A stretch of DNA of 64,000 nucleotides from a phage (PZ386978.1), one strand, 5' to 3'; positions 1 to 23,518 are shown, counted from the first letter of the stretch. Notes: a model not told the origin generated them from the letters alone. Translations and numbers: made by a program.

Positions 1-1602
1 ATGGACTTAAATGCTGTTAAGCAGAAGCGAGTGGAAGATGTTAGGAAAGTCCTAGCTGGAGAGTTGGGGCTTTCTGATGAAGTAAAAGAAATTATCAAAT
101 CATTCGGTAAAGACCCCTCTAAATTCCTTCCAACTCAAATTCTGACTTTATTAAGATACACACCAGACCAAGTTCGCCTTATCTTTAAATTGATGACTGA
201 TAAGAACTATGTAGCTCCTCAGCCGGGTTCTCAAGAGGTCTTTTTAAACACTAATGCTGACTTGGTTCTCTATGGTGGTGCTGCTGGTGCTGGTAAGACT
301 GCTGCATTGTTAATGGACTCTTTAAGATTCATTGAAGACCCTAACTATAATGCTGTGTATTTCCGTCGAAACACAACACAGCTACAAGGTGGACTATGGC
401 CTGCTGCAAAGAAACTATTTGGTAAGTTTGGTGGGATTCCTCACGAGCAGAAAATGACTATCACATTCCCTTCTGGGGCGACTATCAAGTTTACCTATCT
501 AGAACTTGAAAAGCACGCTGAAGGTCATCAGGGTATTGAATACTCAGCTATTTACTTTGACGAAGGTACACACTTCTCTGCTTCACAGATTTCATACCTA
601 CAAACTCGTCTACGTTCTGGTGCTGAAGGCGATTCATACATGAAGATTTCCATGAACCCAGACAGAGACCATTTTATTTATGATTGGGTAGAACCATTCT
701 TAGATGAAGAAGGTTATCCAGACCCTGAAAAATGTGGTCGTATTCGTTGGTATGTAATGAATGATGGTGTGATGGTTTCTGATTGGGAGAGAGACAAGAT
801 TCTTGAAATGTTCCCTCTTGAGATTCCTCAAACATACACCTTCATCTCTGGTACAATTGATGATAACCCAATTCTTGACTTCTTAGAGCCTAAGTACCGT
901 GGTAAGCTGGAAAACAACACCCCTGTAAACGTTGCAAGACTTCGTTTCGGTAACTGGAAGGCTCGTGCAGAAGGTTCAAACTATTGGCAAAGACAGTGGT
1001 GTGAAATTGTTGATTCACTCCCAGAAGATGTATTCGATGTTAGAGCATGGGACTTAGCAGCAACTTTACCATCTGAGATTAACCCTAATCCAGACTGGAC
1101 AGTAGGTGTTAAGATGGGTAAATCTAAAAAAGACGGTTGCTATTATATCATTGATGTAGTAAGATTTAGAGATAGACCCTCTGGAGTTGAAACACAAATT
1201 AATTTGACTGCTGAAAGTGACGGTAAGCGAACTGGTATTTTTATCCCTCAAGACCCAGGCGCTGCTGGTAAATCCTACGCAACATCCCTCATCAGGAAAC
1301 TTGCCGAGAAAGGTTATCGAGCAAGAGCCAAACCAACAAATAAAGATAAAGTTACCCGATTTGCGGGGTTTTCTGCTGCTTCTGAAGCTGGACTTGTAAA
1401 AGTCTTGAGAGGTAGTTGGAATGAAGCTTACTTCCAAGAGCTTGAAGGCTTTTGTGGTGATGGTAAAACTAAAGATGACCAAGTGGATGCTACCAGTGAT
1501 GCTTTCAACAGTCTTAACGAAGTTAAATTATTCAAGCCACCATCAATGGGTGCTCACACAGACTTAGTGAGAGGAAACCCATATGAGGGGCTTAGACGTT
1601 GA
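1..1602 (+). CDS. terL: Terminase large subunit; true start may lie upstream of the window
   Basis: 533 aa ORF with Walker A-like LYGGAAGAGKT near the N-terminus; sits immediately upstream of the portal gene. Confidence 0.8.
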   Translation: MDLNAVKQKRVEDVRKVLAGELGLSDEVKEIIKSFGKDPSKFLPTQILTLLRYTPDQVRLIFKLMTDKNYVAPQPGSQEVFLNTNADLVLYGGAAGAGKTAALLMDSLRFIEDPNYNAVYFRRNTTQLQGGLWPAAKKLFGKFGGIPHEQKMTITFPSGATIKFTYLELEKHAEGHQGIEYSAIYFDEGTHFSASQISYLQTRLRSGAEGDSYMKISMNPDRDHFIYDWVEPFLDEEGYPDPEKCGRIRWYVMNDGVMVSDWERDKILEMFPLEIPQTYTFISGTIDDNPILDFLEPKYRGKLENNTPVNVARLRFGNWKARAEGSNYWQRQWCEIVDSLPEDVFDVRAWDLAATLPSEINPNPDWTVGVKMGKSKKDGCYYIIDVVRFRDRPSGVETQINLTAESDGKRTGIFIPQDPGAAGKSYATSLIRKLAEKGYRARAKPTNKDKVTRFAGFSAASEAGLVKVLRGSWNEAYFQELEGFCGDGKTKDDQVDATSDAFNSLNEVKLFKPPSMGAHTDLVRGNPYEGLRR

Positions 1603-1619
1603 TAGCTAGGTGAAGAAGA

Positions 1620-3086
1620 ATGGCAGATATTACAGAAACACAAGAAAGCTTACCACCATTTAGAATGGGTGAAGTAGGTTCTTTGGGTCTGAAGGTTAAG
1701 AATGGAAGAATCTATGAAGAACCTCGTCAGGCACTAAGGTTCCCTGAAAGTATTAAAACTTTCCAATTAATGATGCGTGACCCTGCTGTAGCAGCATCTG
1801 TAAATATTATTAAGATGTTTGTCAGAAAAGTCAACTGGAGATTCGTACCTCCAAAGGGAAAAGAGCAAGACCCTAAAATGCTTGAAAGAGCAGACTTCTT
1901 TAATTCTTTAATGGATGACATGGAGCATGATTGGGCAGATTTTATTAATTCTGTAATGTCATTCTGCACTTATGGGTTCTGTGTTAACGAGAAAGTTTAT
2001 AAGAAGCGACAGGGTAAAAAAGGAAAGTACCAGTCAAAATTTGATGATGGTCTAATCGGATGGGCTAAATTACCAATCAGAAACCAATCAACACTTGATA
2101 AGTGGTATTTTGACGAAGACTTTAGAAAAGTTACAGGTGTTAGGCAGAATCTGAGAAATGTTTCACATATTGCTGGAGCAATTAATCTTGGAGAAAGACC
2201 ACTAACAAGAAAACTGCCACGAGCTAAATTCATGCTGTTTAAGTATGATGATGAATATGGAAACCCAGAAGGTCGTTCACCATTACTTAATGCCTATGTA
2301 CCGTGGAAGTATAAAGTCCAGATTGAAGAGTACGAAGCTGTTGGTGTTTCAAGAGACTTGGTAGGTATGCCAAAGATTGGTTTACCACCAGATTATCTGG
2401 ATGAAAATGCAGAACCTGAAAAGAAAGCTTTCGTACAATACTGCAAAACTGTTGTTAACGATATGATTGCTAATGACAGAGCAGGTTTAATCTGGCCTAG
2501 ATATATTGACCCAGACACTAAAGAGGATATTTTTGAGTTCTCATTAGTTTCTAGACAGGGTGCTAAAGCATACGATACAGGTTCTATTATTGACAGATAT
2601 TCCAAGCAGATTATGATGGCATTTATGTCAGATGTTCTTGCTATGGGTCAGTCAAAATATGGTTCATTCTCTCTTGCAGATTCTAAGACCAGCTTACTAG
2701 CAATGTCGGTAGATATTCTGCTGAAGCAAATTAAGAACGTAATTAACCGTGATTTAGTTGCACAGACTTATGCTCTTAATATGTGGGATGACGAAGAACA
2801 TGTACAAATCACATATGATGATATCGAAACTCCAGACCTTGAAGCAATTGGTTCTTATATTCAGAAGACTGTTGCAGTAGGTGCTTTGGAAGTTGACAAA
2901 GAGCTATCTAACAAGCTTAGAGAGCATATTGGTCTTCCTCCTGCTGATGAGTCTCAGCCAGTATCTGAAAAGCTTTCTCCAAATAGCCAAAGCCGTTCAG
3001 GAGATGGTTATAAGACTGCTGGAGAAGGTACTGCAAAGACACCTTCAGCGAAAGACCCAAGCACAGCAAATAAGGCAAATAAATAA
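1620..3086 (+). CDS. Portal protein
   Basis: 488 aa ORF directly after the terminase and before the prohead protease; size and position typical of portal; no motif confirmed. Confidence 0.65.
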   Translation: MADITETQESLPPFRMGEVGSLGLKVKNGRIYEEPRQALRFPESIKTFQLMMRDPAVAASVNIIKMFVRKVNWRFVPPKGKEQDPKMLERADFFNSLMDDMEHDWADFINSVMSFCTYGFCVNEKVYKKRQGKKGKYQSKFDDGLIGWAKLPIRNQSTLDKWYFDEDFRKVTGVRQNLRNVSHIAGAINLGERPLTRKLPRAKFMLFKYDDEYGNPEGRSPLLNAYVPWKYKVQIEEYEAVGVSRDLVGMPKIGLPPDYLDENAEPEKKAFVQYCKTVVNDMIANDRAGLIWPRYIDPDTKEDIFEFSLVSRQGAKAYDTGSIIDRYSKQIMMAFMSDVLAMGQSKYGSFSLADSKTSLLAMSVDILLKQIKNVINRDLVAQTYALNMWDDEEHVQITYDDIETPDLEAIGSYIQKTVAVGALEVDKELSNKLREHIGLPPADESQPVSEKLSPNSQSRSGDGYKTAGEGTAKTPSAKDPSTANKANK

Positions 3087-3586
3087 TGGCTGAAGTTATC
3101 TCTATTTCAAATGCTACACGAGTGCATTCGTATAGAGGTGTTCTTATTATCACTGACAAATTATCTGTAGAGGCTGGCTCAAGGGTCAGCCTTTCAGGTT
3201 ACGTAAGTGACGGTGGAACCTCTGACGTTTTCACTATTTGTAGGTTACTTGATGCTCCAATGAGTGGAAAACCGTTTATTTCAGGAAATTGTAGTGAAAT
3301 TGTTAAAATTCCATTTGACAGTTCATGCCTTTTGGGTGTAAAGTTATATAACTGCGAGAATAAACGTATCAATGTTAATAGCATTGAAGCCGCTTTCATT
3401 ACCCTTGACACTGCATTTCAATCTCCAATGACAGTTAATAAAGAAACAAACAGACTTGAATACATTTTTTCACAAAATGATTACAAAGTACTTGTCAAAG
3501 GCAAAGTATATGATATGATTGTAAATGTGGTAGATGAATCTGGTAACCATTCAACAGTCCTTAAACAAAAAGTAAGGTTTAATTAA
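3086..3586 (+). CDS. Hypothetical head-module protein
   Basis: 166 aa ORF, start overlaps portal stop; no recognisable motif. Confidence 0.5.
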   Translation: MAEVISISNATRVHSYRGVLIITDKLSVEAGSRVSLSGYVSDGGTSDVFTICRLLDAPMSGKPFISGNCSEIVKIPFDSSCLLGVKLYNCENKRINVNSIEAAFITLDTAFQSPMTVNKETNRLEYIFSQNDYKVLVKGKVYDMIVNVVDESGNHSTVLKQKVRFN

Positions 3587-3918
3587 TGGGAACATTAACT
3601 ATTGATGGTAAGAACAAAATCCTCGCCACGCTAACCCCAACGACTATTATTTTACACAATGTAGACCCAACGGCAGACCCTACAGCAAATAAGGTTACTC
3701 AGCCAGTGGCTATTTATTTTTCTGAACCGGATAATGGCTTAATTGCCTCAGAAGACACAGTTAACATTACTGTTCCAGCTTCTGCAACGGTATCACACTA
3801 TAGCTTGTGGGATGCTAACGATAAATGCGTGGCAACTGGTGCTCTTAGCAAACCTCAATTCTTTGCTGAAGAAGGTATCTATGTTATCTCTTCAGTCTCT
3901 GTAGATTTAAACAAATAG
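3586..3918 (+). CDS. Hypothetical head-module protein
   Basis: 110 aa ORF, start overlaps the stop of the previous ORF; no motif. Confidence 0.5.
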   Translation: MGTLTIDGKNKILATLTPTTIILHNVDPTADPTANKVTQPVAIYFSEPDNGLIASEDTVNITVPASATVSHYSLWDANDKCVATGALSKPQFFAEEGIYVISSVSVDLNK

Positions 3919-11258: not shown

Positions 11259-19274
<8,016 letters not shown>

Positions 19275-19276
19275 TA

Positions 19277-20443
19277 ATGGCAGTAGGTGAAATTCAAATT
19301 AGTGCCTTGCCTCAAGCAGCCTTACCAATTGACCTTAGTGATATCTTCCATCTTAAGCAGGGTATTGAGGATAAGAGATGTACTCTTGAGCAATTACTTG
19401 CTCCACACTCAAGCCTAAGAAATAACCCCCACGGTGTTACTAAAACACAAATTGGTTTAGATAACGTTATCAATGCTCTTCAGTTAGTTGCTGCAAATAA
19501 TTTATCAGACATTACTAATGTTGATGAGGCAAGAGCAAATCTACAGATTATGTCTTCAGAAGAGGTTAATAGCCTTGTCCAACAGCATATTAATGATAAG
19601 AGTAATCCACACAATACAACTAAAGCACAGGTTGGTTTAAGTAATGTTCAGAACTGGACAACATCTAATCTTTATAATGAAGATGCAGATAAGTACGCTA
19701 CAGCAAGAGCAGTAAATAACTTGTACAAGGCTGTTCAGGCTTCTTATCCAGTAGGTACTATCCATCTCTCTATGAATCCTGCAAACCCTTCTACATATTT
19801 AATTTGTGGGGGTACTTGGGAGTTAGTTTCAAGAGGAAGAGCACTTGTAGGTTATGATAGTGATTCTAGGCCAGTTGGTAGTAACTTTGGCTCAAGTAGT
19901 GTTAGCTTATCTAGTAACAACCTACCATCACATAGTCATTCAATCTACCTAACTGGTGGTGGACATACTCATGGGGCTACTATTACTATCGATGGCTTTG
20001 ATTACGGCAATAAGAGCACAAACAGTTTCGATTATGGAACAAAGACCACTAATAGCACTGGTGCTCACACCCACTCAGTGAGCGGTTCAACAAATACCAC
20101 AGGTAATCACACACATACTGTAGGTGGTCGTTACGGGGGTGACTCTATTGGTGGTAAACAACGTGTTCAGGTCTCAGGGACTGCTCAGGTTTCCAGTGTA
20201 GCTGGTGACCACTCACACACTATTAGCGGTTCAACAAATACCACAGGTAATCACCAACACACTGTTGCAATTGGTGCTCACACGCATACTGTTGCAATTG
20301 GTGCTCATACCCATAAAGGCACAGTAACCTTGCAGTCATCTGAGCATACTCACTCAGGTACTACAGGTACTACAGGTGCTGGTCAAGCATTCAGCGTTGA
20401 ACAACCATCCTTTGTGGTTTATGTATGGCAAAGAACCGCTTAA
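19277..20443 (+). CDS. Tail fibre protein (short) with tail-collar-like domain and HxH repeat tip
   Basis: Collar-like segment YLICGGTWE...NLPSHSHS, then repeated HTH/HSH/HQH motifs; C-terminus ...AFSVEQPSFVVYVWQRTA paralogous to the next gene. Confidence 0.75.
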   Translation: MAVGEIQISALPQAALPIDLSDIFHLKQGIEDKRCTLEQLLAPHSSLRNNPHGVTKTQIGLDNVINALQLVAANNLSDITNVDEARANLQIMSSEEVNSLVQQHINDKSNPHNTTKAQVGLSNVQNWTTSNLYNEDADKYATARAVNNLYKAVQASYPVGTIHLSMNPANPSTYLICGGTWELVSRGRALVGYDSDSRPVGSNFGSSSVSLSSNNLPSHSHSIYLTGGGHTHGATITIDGFDYGNKSTNSFDYGTKTTNSTGAHTHSVSGSTNTTGNHTHTVGGRYGGDSIGGKQRVQVSGTAQVSSVAGDHSHTISGSTNTTGNHQHTVAIGAHTHTVAIGAHTHKGTVTLQSSEHTHSGTTGTTGAGQAFSVEQPSFVVYVWQRTA

Positions 20444-20493
20444 AAATTCTTTTACAGGGGGCTGTACAGCCCTCTTTCTAGAGGACAAAAATA

Positions 20494-22839
20494 ATGGCAG
20501 ATTACAAGTTGAGTGAATTAAACTCAATCGATACAATCCGTTCAGATGACCTTCTTCATGTCAGAGTTAAAAAGAGACCTGAAATGCTTGGCGATGAAGA
20601 CCGTCGAATGACCTATCAAGACTTCTTAGCATCTTTTAAACTTGAAAGATTTGTTCAGATTGCTGGTAGCACTATGACAGGTGACTTAGGAATTGTTAAG
20701 TTACTTTATGGTGGTAAGGCAGTCTTTGACCCAACAGGTTCTTCTGAGATTACTATTGGGGATGTTTTAAAGACTTTTAAAATCAACGCAAACGGCCTTA
20801 AACTGACTATTGCAGACGCTTCAAGGTCGGCAACTGTTTATCATACTCTGAATAAGCCAAGTCCTAATGAACTTGGGATGAGAACTAATGAAGAGAATGA
20901 CGCAAGATATGCAAGACTTGCTGTCACAAACACATTCTCTGGGACTCAGCAAATTCAAGGTGATTCTAACTTACTTCGCCTTAGAAACCAAAATGCAAAT
21001 AATGCACAATATATTGAAGGTGTAGACCTAGATGGTTCGGCTAGATGGTGGGTCGGTATTGGTCGCAATGGCGGTGATACAGTAAACCTGTATAACAACA
21101 AATACGACTCAGCCTTGACTGTTGCAAGTAATATTTCTGTTAATAAGTCTTTAGTAATCACTGGTCAAGTTCAACCTTCAGATTTCTCTAACTTAGATGC
21201 TAGATACTTTACTCAGACAGTTGCTAATCAGAGATTTGCACAGTTAGCTGCGAATAACACTTTTACAGGTGCTAATACTTTCACTAACCTTGTTGTTAAA
21301 AAAAATGCTAATGCTATTACTTTGCAGAATACTGATGAAGGTACAGCACTTTATATTCTCGGTAAGAAGTCTGATGGAACAAATAAATGGTATGTTGGTA
21401 CAGACTCTGATGAGACACGTCTGAACATTTATAACTACCTTACAGGTTCACAGGTTTCACTAGGGACTACTATTGGTATTAATAAAACCGTGCAAATCAA
21501 TGGTCAAGTTCAGCCATCTGATTGGACTAACATCGACTCTAGATATATTCCGGCAGCAACATTAAGTACAATTGCAAGAACTAATGCACAAAATACTTTT
21601 AATGGTGCGCAAACAGTTGTTAGTGATGGCGAAGGTTTAGTTATTAAAAACTCCACTCAGAATAGGCCATTGTATATTCGTGGTAAGGACGCTGCCAATG
21701 TATCAAGATGGTGGTTAGGTGTTGGTGACCCAAATTCTACTGATGTAGCCTTAAACAACAGCTTCTCTGGCACTCAGTTAATTTTAGGTAACTCATCTGC
21801 AAGTATCAATAAGACATTAACCCTAGCAGGGCAGATTCAACCCTCAGATTTCTCTAACTTAGATGCTAGATATTACACGCAATCTACCGCAAACTCTAGG
21901 TATATGCTTGCTTATTCTTCTGGCACTGGTACAGAGGTAGGTGATAGTGATGGCGTTGCTTGGAATGCTAAAACTGGTCTGTATAATGTTACAAGGTTTA
22001 ATGGAGGCTCAACACTACTTGTTTTCCAAATGTATCAAGGTTCAAGCTCTACTCCTTCTGCTCAATTGAAATTCGACTACAGGAATGGAGGATTTTGGTA
22101 CAGGTCATCAAGGGATAATTTTGGTTTTGAAGAGGACTTCACACAGATTTATACAGAAAGGTATAAACCAACCCCTTCAGCTATCGGTGCATACACTAAA
22201 GCAGAAACTGACCAGAAGATTGCACAGGCAGTAAGTGATTCAACAGACCTTAACAAAATCTACCCTGTTGGTATTGTAACGTGGTTTAACAGTAATGTTA
22301 ACCCTAATACAGCACTCCCTGGGTTAACTTGGACGTATCTGAACAATGGTGTTGGTAGAACTATCCGAATTGCAGCAGCAAATGGTTCAGATGTTGCTAC
22401 AACTGGTGGTTCAGATTCTGTTACGTTAGCAGTTGGAAACTTACCTTCACACACTCATAGATTCTCTGCGACTACTTCATCATTTGACTATGGTACTAAA
22501 ACCACTAACACTACTGGTGCTCACACCCACTCAGTGAGTGGTTCTACTAACAACACTGGTGCTCATACACATACAGTTGGTGGTCGTTATGGTGGTGACT
22601 CTACCGGTGGTAAACAACGTGTTCAGGTATCTGGTACAGAACAGGTATCTAGCTCTGCTGGTGCTCACGCTCACACTGTGTCTGGTACTGCTGCCTCTAA
22701 CGGAAACCATGCTCACACTGTTGGTATTGGTGCTCACAGTCATACAGTTAGTGGTAACACTGGTGGTACAGGTTCTGGTTCAGCATTTAGTGTAACTAAC
22801 CAGTTCTATAAGCTGATGGCTTGGGTAAGAACTGCTTAA
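20494..22839 (+). CDS. Tail fibre protein (long) with internal repeats, collar-like domain and HxH repeat tip
   Basis: 781 aa; three copies of a GQ(V/I)QPSD(F/W)(S/T)N(L/I)D(A/S)RY repeat; C-terminal LPSHTHRF plus HTH/HAH/HSH repeats; ends ...MAWVRTA. Confidence 0.75.
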   Translation: MADYKLSELNSIDTIRSDDLLHVRVKKRPEMLGDEDRRMTYQDFLASFKLERFVQIAGSTMTGDLGIVKLLYGGKAVFDPTGSSEITIGDVLKTFKINANGLKLTIADASRSATVYHTLNKPSPNELGMRTNEENDARYARLAVTNTFSGTQQIQGDSNLLRLRNQNANNAQYIEGVDLDGSARWWVGIGRNGGDTVNLYNNKYDSALTVASNISVNKSLVITGQVQPSDFSNLDARYFTQTVANQRFAQLAANNTFTGANTFTNLVVKKNANAITLQNTDEGTALYILGKKSDGTNKWYVGTDSDETRLNIYNYLTGSQVSLGTTIGINKTVQINGQVQPSDWTNIDSRYIPAATLSTIARTNAQNTFNGAQTVVSDGEGLVIKNSTQNRPLYIRGKDAANVSRWWLGVGDPNSTDVALNNSFSGTQLILGNSSASINKTLTLAGQIQPSDFSNLDARYYTQSTANSRYMLAYSSGTGTEVGDSDGVAWNAKTGLYNVTRFNGGSTLLVFQMYQGSSSTPSAQLKFDYRNGGFWYRSSRDNFGFEEDFTQIYTERYKPTPSAIGAYTKAETDQKIAQAVSDSTDLNKIYPVGIVTWFNSNVNPNTALPGLTWTYLNNGVGRTIRIAAANGSDVATTGGSDSVTLAVGNLPSHTHRFSATTSSFDYGTKTTNTTGAHTHSVSGSTNNTGAHTHTVGGRYGGDSTGGKQRVQVSGTEQVSSSAGAHAHTVSGTAASNGNHAHTVGIGAHSHTVSGNTGGTGSGSAFSVTNQFYKLMAWVRTA

Positions 22840-23485: not shown

Positions 23486-23492
23486 ATTTTAA

Positions 23493-23518
23493 GGCTCCTT
23501 TTTACGGGAGCCTTTTTT
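23493..23518. terminator. Convergent-block terminator hairpin between the structural and early gene blocks
   Basis: Stem GGCTCC/GGAGCC, loop TTTTTACG, TTTTTT on the plus strand; lies between the 3' ends of 23114..23485 (+) and thyA (-). Confidence 0.6.

Follow-up and report, generated by a model that had tools for sequence, protein, structure and literature searches.

The tail-fiber genes of the window

The DNA described here is a stretch of 64,000 nucleotides (nt) from a phage (PZ386978.1), read 5' to 3' on one strand and referred to below as the window, with positions counted from its first letter. The region 19,277 to 22,839 encodes two fibers, the short tail fiber (STF) and the long tail fiber (LTF), whose genes are as follows (lengths in amino acids, aa).

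19277–20443, + strand: STF gene, 388 aa; ortholog of Felix O1 ORF76 and Bas63 gp26; matches phrog_2097 'tail fiber protein' at E 4e-139
20494–22839, + strand: LTF gene, 781 aa; ortholog of Felix O1 ORF77 and Bas63 gp27; matches phrog_4277 at E 0 over its full length

The window is from a Felixounavirus. Its 3,563-nt fiber region is 96% identical in DNA to that of Salmonella phage VSe102 and 94% identical to that of Felix O1, and both open reading frames (ORFs) carry a tail-fiber annotation in records of the VSe102 and Felix O1 type (94–96% DNA identity). The ORF order of 489, 285, 100, 388 and 781 aa reproduces the Bas63 map, namely wedge 2, wedge 1, LTF platform, STF and LTF (PMC12609058). 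Both synteny and full-length orthology with the Felixounavirus STF/LTF pair were found, and the layout recurs in the relatives that were fetched with their upstream flanks. Mass spectrometry has located Felix O1 gp77 in virions (PMC3185647). We consider it very probable that the two genes encode trimeric fibers of a Felix O1-like myovirus, each of which ends in a paralogous receptor-binding tip of the T4 gp37 type.

Architecture of the shared tip

A preliminary description, made from the sequence of the window alone, held that both fibers end in the same module of a collar and HxH repeats. The motifs it named (LPSHSHS/LPSHTHR, FDYGTKTTN and AFSV...W(Q/V)RTA) are indeed present in both fibers, and HxH repeats number nine in STF and six in LTF. 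By BLASTP, STF 157–339 and LTF 590–752 are 54% identical over 185 aa (E 4e-50). The module divides into the following parts.

19736–19930, + strand: STF collar domain (aa 154–218), whose last motif, NLPSHSH, opens the needle; Pfam PF21939 Gp10_C at E 4e-17 over aa 154–270
19931–20116, + strand: STF descending needle arm (aa 219–280); four HxH rungs (SHSHS, GHTHG, AHTHS, NHTHT), aligned residue by residue to the T4 gp37 rungs
20117–20209, + strand: STF head loop at the hairpin turn (aa 281–311), TVGGRYGGDSIGGKQRVQVSGTAQVSSVAGD; the largest HxH-free gap of the tip
20210–20353, + strand: STF ascending needle arm (aa 312–359); five HxH rungs
20354–20440, + strand: STF C-terminal return segment (aa 360–388), ...GAGQAFSVEQPSFVVYVWQRTA
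22252–22449, + strand: LTF collar domain (aa 587–652); aligns with the STF collar inside the BLASTP match at E 4e-50; Pfam Gp10_C at 25 bits, just under the 27-bit cutoff
22450–22572, + strand: LTF descending needle arm (aa 653–693); three HxH rungs
22573–22665, + strand: LTF head loop (aa 694–724), TVGGRYGGDSTGGKQRVQVSGTEQVSSSAGA; in the LTF-only clade of the head-block tree discussed below
22666–22836, + strand: LTF ascending arm (three HxH rungs, aa 725–750) and C-terminal return segment (aa 751–781, ...AFSVTNQFYKLMAWVRTA)

The resemblance to the tip of the T4 long tail fiber, which had been proposed from the motifs, extends to direct sequence homology. In phmmer searches of the PDB, STF 146–359 matched chain residues 18–227 of 2XGF (T4 gp37 residues 785–1026) at E 8e-26, a match that takes in the collar, both arms and the head. 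LTF 651–760 matched chain residues 105–218 of the same structure at E 7e-13, covering the needle and head without the collar; BLASTP ties the LTF collar to the T4-type tip by way of STF. Pfam Phage_fiber was found in both fibers. The proposed collar is likewise supported, by the Gp10_C matches listed above and by matches of the STF collar to T4 gp10 chains (phmmer, E 6e-8) and to the collar part of 2XGF. Pfam PF07484 (Collar), the family expected from the LPxHxH motif, gave no match at E <= 0.1 in either fiber; the collar belongs with PF21939 Gp10_C, and many prophage homologs pair PF07484 with the same needle. The STF head loop aligns with the tip subdomain of T4 gp37, residues 933–959, and is identical to the LTF head at 27 of 31 residues (4/31 differ). 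In the return segment, the AFS of STF corresponds in the alignment to AFN in Lv5cm gp37, whose C-terminus is of the T4 type (...NIAFNYIVRLA).

By homology with T4, the chain would run from a gp10-like collar along descending G-x-H-x-H rungs to a head of ~31 aa at the turn, and back to the collar along ascending HxH rungs. Three such chains would form a six-stranded needle, in which the HxH triplet contributed by the three chains may hold a single metal ion, which would probably be iron, on the three-fold axis, with up to 9 metal sites in STF and 6 in LTF. The head would be the part that touches the host surface. The T4 needle holds seven iron ions; H929 and H931 are iron ligands essential for plaque formation, and several residues of the tip subdomain 933–959 are also essential (PMC6957217). 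The Bas63 fibers are trimeric at low resolution, with no metal resolved (PMC12609058).

The distribution of the histidines bears on the metal. The two HxH series flank a histidine-free head of 31 aa, as 4 + 5 motifs in STF and 3 + 3 in LTF. Seven of the STF motifs align one-to-one with the seven of T4 gp37, and two (LPSHSHS and SEHTHSG) have no counterpart there. Across 36 homologs (35–89% identity), H74, H76, H135, H181, H183 and R241 of the tip are invariant, and H133 is nearly so. The repeats might instead be structural beta-strand motifs that are metal-free or bind a metal other than iron. The two unmatched STF motifs would fit such a role, and T4 gp12 binds zinc through similar HxH motifs. 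The exact alignment of the other seven and the invariance of the tip histidines given above make this unlikely. Iron-type metal coordination by the Felixounavirus rungs is predicted by analogy with T4.

The needle was further examined as a hairpin. Both arms were measured in 48 fibers from 24 phages, and their lengths (descending, ascending) fell into four classes, (24,43), (34,52), (38,57) and (59,77), with a constant offset of 18–19 residues; the evidence is indirect, as only the four classes count as independent observations. The STF of the window exceeds its LTF by 21 residues in the descending arm and by 20 in the ascending arm. The constant offset therefore implies that an insertion or deletion in one arm has its counterpart in the other, as a hairpin requires. 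Suspvirus-type STFs break this rule because their descending arm is built of FDYG repeats without HxH. A 27-nt tandem duplication at 20261–20315 (92% match) encodes TVAIGAHTH twice and adds one rung to the ascending arm of STF, a gain that looks recent.

Likeness of the two copies in the window genome

The DNA that the two modules share in the window is centered on a gapless core.

20027–20287, + strand: STF copy of the 261-nt gapless shared core, including the exact runs 20057–20082 and 20150–20172
22483–22743, + strand: LTF copy of the same core, including the exact runs 22513–22538 and 22606–22628

The exact runs noted in the preliminary description are real. The run ACTGGTGCTCACACCCACTCAGTGAG occurs exactly twice (20057–20082 and 22513–22538), as does GGTGGTAAACAACGTGTTCAGGT (20150–20172 and 22606–22628), and neither was recovered in any of 100 shuffles. 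The broader statement that the encoding DNA is near-identical is not borne out: the core is 75.1% identical, against 70.6% expected from the proteins alone. Identity declines along the core, from 81% in nt 1–90 through 76% in the head block to 63% in the last 57 nt, and the longest gapless block returned by the repeat finder is 195 nt at 80% identity. The core proteins are 80% identical. Synonymous sites are near saturation, with a proportion of synonymous differences (pS) of 0.59, a synonymous divergence (dS) of ~1.17, a nonsynonymous divergence (dN) of 0.145 and a ratio of the two (omega) of 0.12 (Nei-Gojobori); estimates of omega ranged from 0.05 to 0.19 at dS of 1.0–1.8.

The expectation was derived from a codon null, in which both protein sequences were held fixed and codons were drawn independently from the phage's own codon usage. 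Under this null, identity was 70.6 +/- 2.1% (P = 0.02 for the observed 75.1%), a run of at least 26 nt had P = 0.014, and the same codon was used at 43 of the 70 identical residues, compared with 31.5 expected (P = 0.004). Because identity, run length and codon matches exceed the null only modestly, protein conservation accounts for most of the DNA likeness in the window genome and leaves a small excess. Recent gene conversion in the window genome was considered as the source of the exact runs and rejected, given a dS of ~1.2 and an LTF head that clusters with unconverted LTF heads. The two copies are old paralogs. With synonymous change so close to saturation, what keeps the core proteins 80% identical and the heads alike at 27 of 31 residues is purifying selection and not recent copying.

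Exchange between the two fiber genes in relatives

The preliminary description had also suggested that fibers be compared across related phages. We fetched 26 relatives; SUT_S820 and the Tequatrovirus Lv5cm yielded one fiber gene each, and both genes were obtained from 24 Ounavirinae. Identical STF/LTF tracts of 51–189 nt were found in 7 of the 15 Salmonella relatives: 189 nt in BPS17L1, 186 in pSJ21, 141 in Seyj1-1, 113 in UAB_Phi87, 69 in OPT-SAL01, 59 in BPS15Q2 and 51 in Felix O1, compared with 26 in the window. For four of these genomes, a Sawyer-type permutation test gave no run as long as the observed one in 10,000 permutations. The 3' ends of the tracts all lie at core nt ~195–197, where homology drops to ~60%; the 5' ends vary, and all tracts are in frame. 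In neighbor-joining trees, the flank (nt 205–261) splits cleanly by gene while the head block mixes by genome, with the window LTF head in an LTF-only, unconverted clade. Some rare variants are common to both paralogs of a single genome only, for example HYVGD...KPRVQVYG in BPS17L1 and GGHY...RVQASGTAQ in UAB_Phi87. SUT_S820 and SUT_S920 have the same chimeric LTF tip (97.9%), and the NBSal004 LTF groups in the head-block tree with the converted Seyj1-1 LTF and with STF-type heads, its own STF being of another type.

These sequence patterns indicate that the long identical tracts of the relatives arose by gene conversion. In the sister Salmonella phages, the same segment has been homogenized repeatedly between the two genes, and the conversion zone would comprise the lower descending rungs and the head, stopping just after the first ascending rung. 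The earlier proposal that the homology is a substrate for recombination, between the fibers or with incoming modules, thus holds for the relatives, in their tracts of 51–189 nt and in a head cassette common with Tequatrovirus gp37 (below). The window genome itself shows no recent event.

A simpler history would be an old duplication followed by purifying selection only, with no recombination between STF and LTF and with the identical runs as chance islands. The window by itself is close to this, with a core at 75% DNA identity against an expected 70.6%, a dS of ~1.2 and an LTF head in the LTF-only clade. Even there, the same-codon excess (43 versus 31.5, P = 0.004) and the 26-nt run (P = 0.014) weigh against chance islands. 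Among the relatives, the seven genomes with tracts of differing 5' ends, and the rare variants confined to both paralogs of one genome, make this history improbable. The 186-nt tract of pSJ21, set against the 189 nt of BPS17L1, is a partial independent confirmation of the tracts.

Considering that most of these genomes are probably short-read assemblies and that the tracts lie in a repeated segment, collapse of the short reads of two similar repeats could also have produced long identities. Judging from the assembled records, we regard such an artefact as very improbable. BPS17L1 and pSJ21 were isolated separately and have records of their own, and their tracts are nearly the same (189 versus 186 nt). 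SUT_S820 and SUT_S920 have their chimeric LTF tip in common, and NBSal004 has an LTF that clusters with the converted one of Seyj1-1 and an STF of another type. Moreover, the tracts are all in frame and have the same end point, where homology falls.

Two records met in this comparison are of note in their own right. The LTF of Si3 is annotated as two coding sequences (1518–2879 and 2926–3861; fetched locus 1518–3861), likely owing to a frameshift or sequencing error, and the Bas63 paper flags this LTF as incomplete (PMC12609058). GU169904.1, named 'Staphylococcus phage SA1', is 93.6% identical in DNA to a Felixounavirus LTF tip at 86139–86558 and is probably a chimeric or contaminated record.

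The head as a host-associated cassette

The ~31-aa head loop was found on both fibers only in Salmonella phages. A tblastn search with a 37-aa head peptide returned 86 phage records, mostly with two locations each; 80 of the records are named for Salmonella. All nine sampled Ounavirinae from Escherichia or Shigella hosts (9/9) have other heads, which also differ between their own STF and LTF; heads of the Escherichia, Shigella and Suspvirus relatives span 32–77 residues. BPS17W1 and RPN213 have the Felix-type head on STF only.

The same head is present outside the Felixounavirus group. In gp37 of Lv5cm, a Tequatrovirus that infects Salmonella, a T4-like collar and C-terminus surround a Felix-type head. 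This DNA (fetched locus 829–1058) is 88.7% identical over 230 nt to nt 2008–2237 of the LTF of the Felixounavirus SEP1, and ~78% identical to other LTFs. P2-like Salmonella phages, a group with no relationship to Felixounavirus, have a head that is 62% identical. The likeness of Lv5cm and SEP1 indicates, at the level of sequence, that a specificity element was exchanged across families. Because of this distribution across hosts and families, the head is read as a host-specific, mobile cassette, a reading that the evidence favors.

Other parts of the fibers and neighboring genes

Upstream of its tip, the LTF has a repetitive rod and a further domain.

20917–21903, + strand: three tandem LTF rod repeats of ~110 aa each (aa 142–250, 251–362 and 363–470), each closing with GQ(V/I)QPSD(F/W)(S/T)N(L/I)D(A/S)RY
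21904–22245, + strand: LTF middle domain (aa 471–584); Pfam PF12604 gp37_C at E 2e-30

The three internal repeats of the preliminary description lie where it placed them and prove to be part of these ~110-aa units; the closing motif is at 21163–21207, 21502–21546 and 21829–21873. The units are 37–45% identical to one another by self-alignment, match Pfam PF20744 gp37_trimer in three stretches (E 2e-83), and are seen in the DNA as a repeat family (D4) with spacings of 339 and 327 nt. In the STF shaft, the motif NPH..TK.Q.GL.NV occurs twice, at 19424–19468 and 19604–19648 (aa 50–64 and 110–124), and is probably the counterpart of the elements known in Bas63 as 'triple alpha-helix and turn'.

The LTF middle domain resembles the C-terminal part of the phage Mu tail fiber S: residues 471–576 match 8JU3 (Mu tail fiber S/S') at E 1e-21. 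Two domains of the LTF are therefore candidates for receptor binding, this Mu S-like domain and, downstream, the T4-like tip. In a related phage, LTF changes after host challenge were reported at aa 497 and 534, inside the Mu S-like domain; the authors doubted that these changes account for the change in host range (PMC6669636). The head loop could instead be a docking element that parks retracted fibers on the tail sheath, with specificity located elsewhere, for example in this domain. Beyond the positions of these changes and the 8JU3 match, such a role would agree with the location of the Bas63 STF head between sheath domains D2 and D3 when the fiber is retracted (PMC12609058). Yet most Felixounavirus structural proteins differ from those of Bas63 by little over 5% (PMC12609058), while the heads of Escherichia and Shigella phages are unrelated. 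A conserved sheath cannot dictate the sequence of the head, because the structural proteins are nearly invariant while the heads differ. Tequatrovirus gp37 also has the same head, P2-like Salmonella phages have one that is 62% identical, and the aligned T4 residues serve as a functional receptor contact (PMC6957217). A docking role in place of receptor contact is therefore quite improbable, and by analogy with T4 the head loop is the predicted receptor contact, with indirect support from the confinement of this head type to Salmonella phages of several families and from the other heads of the Escherichia and Shigella relatives.

Several features around the fiber genes were also recorded. The 100-aa ORF at 18972–19274, directly upstream of STF, corresponds by synteny with Bas63 gp25 to a T4 gp9-like LTF platform; its family, phrog_4141, is still of unknown function in PHROGs. 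The 50-nt spacer between the fiber genes (20444–20493) holds a GC-rich hairpin (GGGGGCTGTACAGCCCTC), and the wV8 record has a rho-independent terminator annotated at the same spot; the hairpin may govern how much STF is expressed relative to LTF. The operon ends at 23491–23514 in a clear bidirectional terminator, facing a converging thymidylate synthase gene. The central spike protein (15601–16224, 207 aa) terminates in ...NEHTHHYYW, with H188 and H190 at the exact positions proposed as an iron site in the puncturing apparatus of Bas63. This pair is a third candidate HxH metal site of the gene cluster.

No tail-fiber chaperone was recognized downstream, where two ORFs matched only PHROG families of unknown function (PHROGs and Pfam), and tblastn with Tequatrovirus gp38 across the 64-kb window found nothing (best E 0.5; gp57A was not searched for). 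The authors of the Sf14 study likewise report no chaperone homologs, together with two fibers (PMC11821841). Dependence on gp38 and gp57A is a trait of T4 biology and not of the fold.

Weighing the interpretation

The observations can be joined in a tentative scheme, which we hold to be a real possibility though somewhat short of probable. In the Salmonella-infecting Felix O1 clade, one head would be kept on both fibers by selection and by recurrent conversion of the first ~195 nt of the 261-nt core. T4-like and P2-like Salmonella phages would take part in exchanges of the same cassette, the HxH rungs acting as portable homology arms.

A number of points weigh against the interpretation, in its structural or its evolutionary part. 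An AlphaFold2 monomer of the STF tip, built on the 36-sequence alignment, is confident in the collar (predicted local distance difference test score, pLDDT, 80–89) and poor in the needle (pLDDT 50–60; mean 64.6). With this model, Foldseek against the PDB returned nothing at E <= 0.001, and 2XGF was not among the structures returned; there were only weak matches to gp10 and C24 (best E 5.7e-3; 2FKK at probability 0.99, E 1.5e-2). The fiber density of Bas63 is too coarse for side-chain modeling (PMC12609058). The window genome gives only weak signs of past exchange (P ~0.01), phylogeny confounds the link between head type and host, and the only phage-side host-challenge changes that we found reported, at LTF aa 497 and 534 (PMC6669636), fall outside the tip. 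Since the monomer is confident in the collar only and the fold search is unusable for the needle, the structural claim rests on sequence homology and on published work.

If the scheme is true, one virion would present a single specificity element at two reaches, which might contribute to the uniform lysis of Salmonella by Felix O1, and the HxH needle would also act as a built-in scaffold on which host-range modules recombine. For decades, Felix O1 has been used in diagnostics and biocontrol. For phage engineers, both fibers bear the same T4-type tip, and the specificity element would be the ~31-residue head framed by HxH rungs. Considering that the cassette appears to have been swapped naturally between fibers and between phage families, the rungs would mark splice points for host-range grafts.

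Comparison with known systems

The architecture itself has been published. The genome paper on Felix O1 of 2010 noted that the C-termini of gp76 and gp77 both resemble T4 gp37 (PMC3185647). The 2025 study of Bas63 by cryo-electron microscopy described both fibers as ending in a T4 gp37-like collar, HxH needle and head, with seven and six HxH motifs and with tips that vary across the genus (PMC12609058). The structural interpretation in the preliminary description is in this sense correct. What the present analysis adds is comparative evidence for exchange between the paralogs, a modest extension and not a new kind of system; gene conversion between the paralogs and exchange of the head across families appear to be undescribed in the literature that was searched.

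Compared with the T4 gp37 tip (2XGF), the fibers of the window have the same collar, descending rungs, head loop, ascending rungs and AF...R.A C-terminus. Their GGK/GGNK head motif aligns with T4 G942, G943, N944 and K945, and G942 and G943 are essential in T4 (PMC6957217). The differences lie in the setting of the module, its dimensions and its target. Here it is found on two separate single-protein fibers, whereas in T4 it is the distal quarter of a four-protein fiber; the rungs number 9 and 6 against 7 in T4; and the head has 31 residues and another sequence, against ~27 residues. A gp38-type chaperone gene is neither adjacent to the fibers nor found in the 64-kb window. Felix O1 targets lipopolysaccharide (LPS), and the pairing of a Salmonella host with an LPS target contrasts with OmpC or E. 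coli B-type LPS for T4. The T4 gp10 C-terminal domain (2FKK; PF21939 Gp10_C) is of the same family as both collars, although gp10 is a baseplate protein without an HxH needle.

Among closer systems, Bas63 (gp26/gp27) and the Mooglevirus Sf14 (gp52/gp53) have the gene order wedge 2, wedge 1, LTF platform, STF and LTF, and are reported with the same fiber domain organization (PMC12609058; PMC11821841). Bas63 differs in having 7 and 6 HxH motifs against the 9 and 6 of the window phage, and neither paper mentions a single head type on both fibers of the Salmonella clade or an exchange between STF and LTF. The PhageMaP preprint on Bas63 and a paper on APEC phage likewise give no details particular to the two fibers. 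ORF76 and ORF77 of Felix O1 (NC_005282) and the genes of VSe102, the closest relative, are direct orthologs at 94–96% DNA identity across the region. The two heads of Felix O1 are 91% identical in DNA, with an exact run of 51 nt, compared with 76% and 26 nt in the window.

The nearest precedent for exchange is in the T-even phages, in which recombination reportedly takes place at conserved 'His box' motifs of the distal tail-fiber locus (Tetart et al., J Mol Biol 1998). In both cases, conserved DNA that encodes GxHxH flanks a variable specificity segment and provides homology for swaps. The T-even exchange would occur between co-infecting phages at one locus, whereas the exchange indicated here also involves two paralogs of one genome and extends across phage families.

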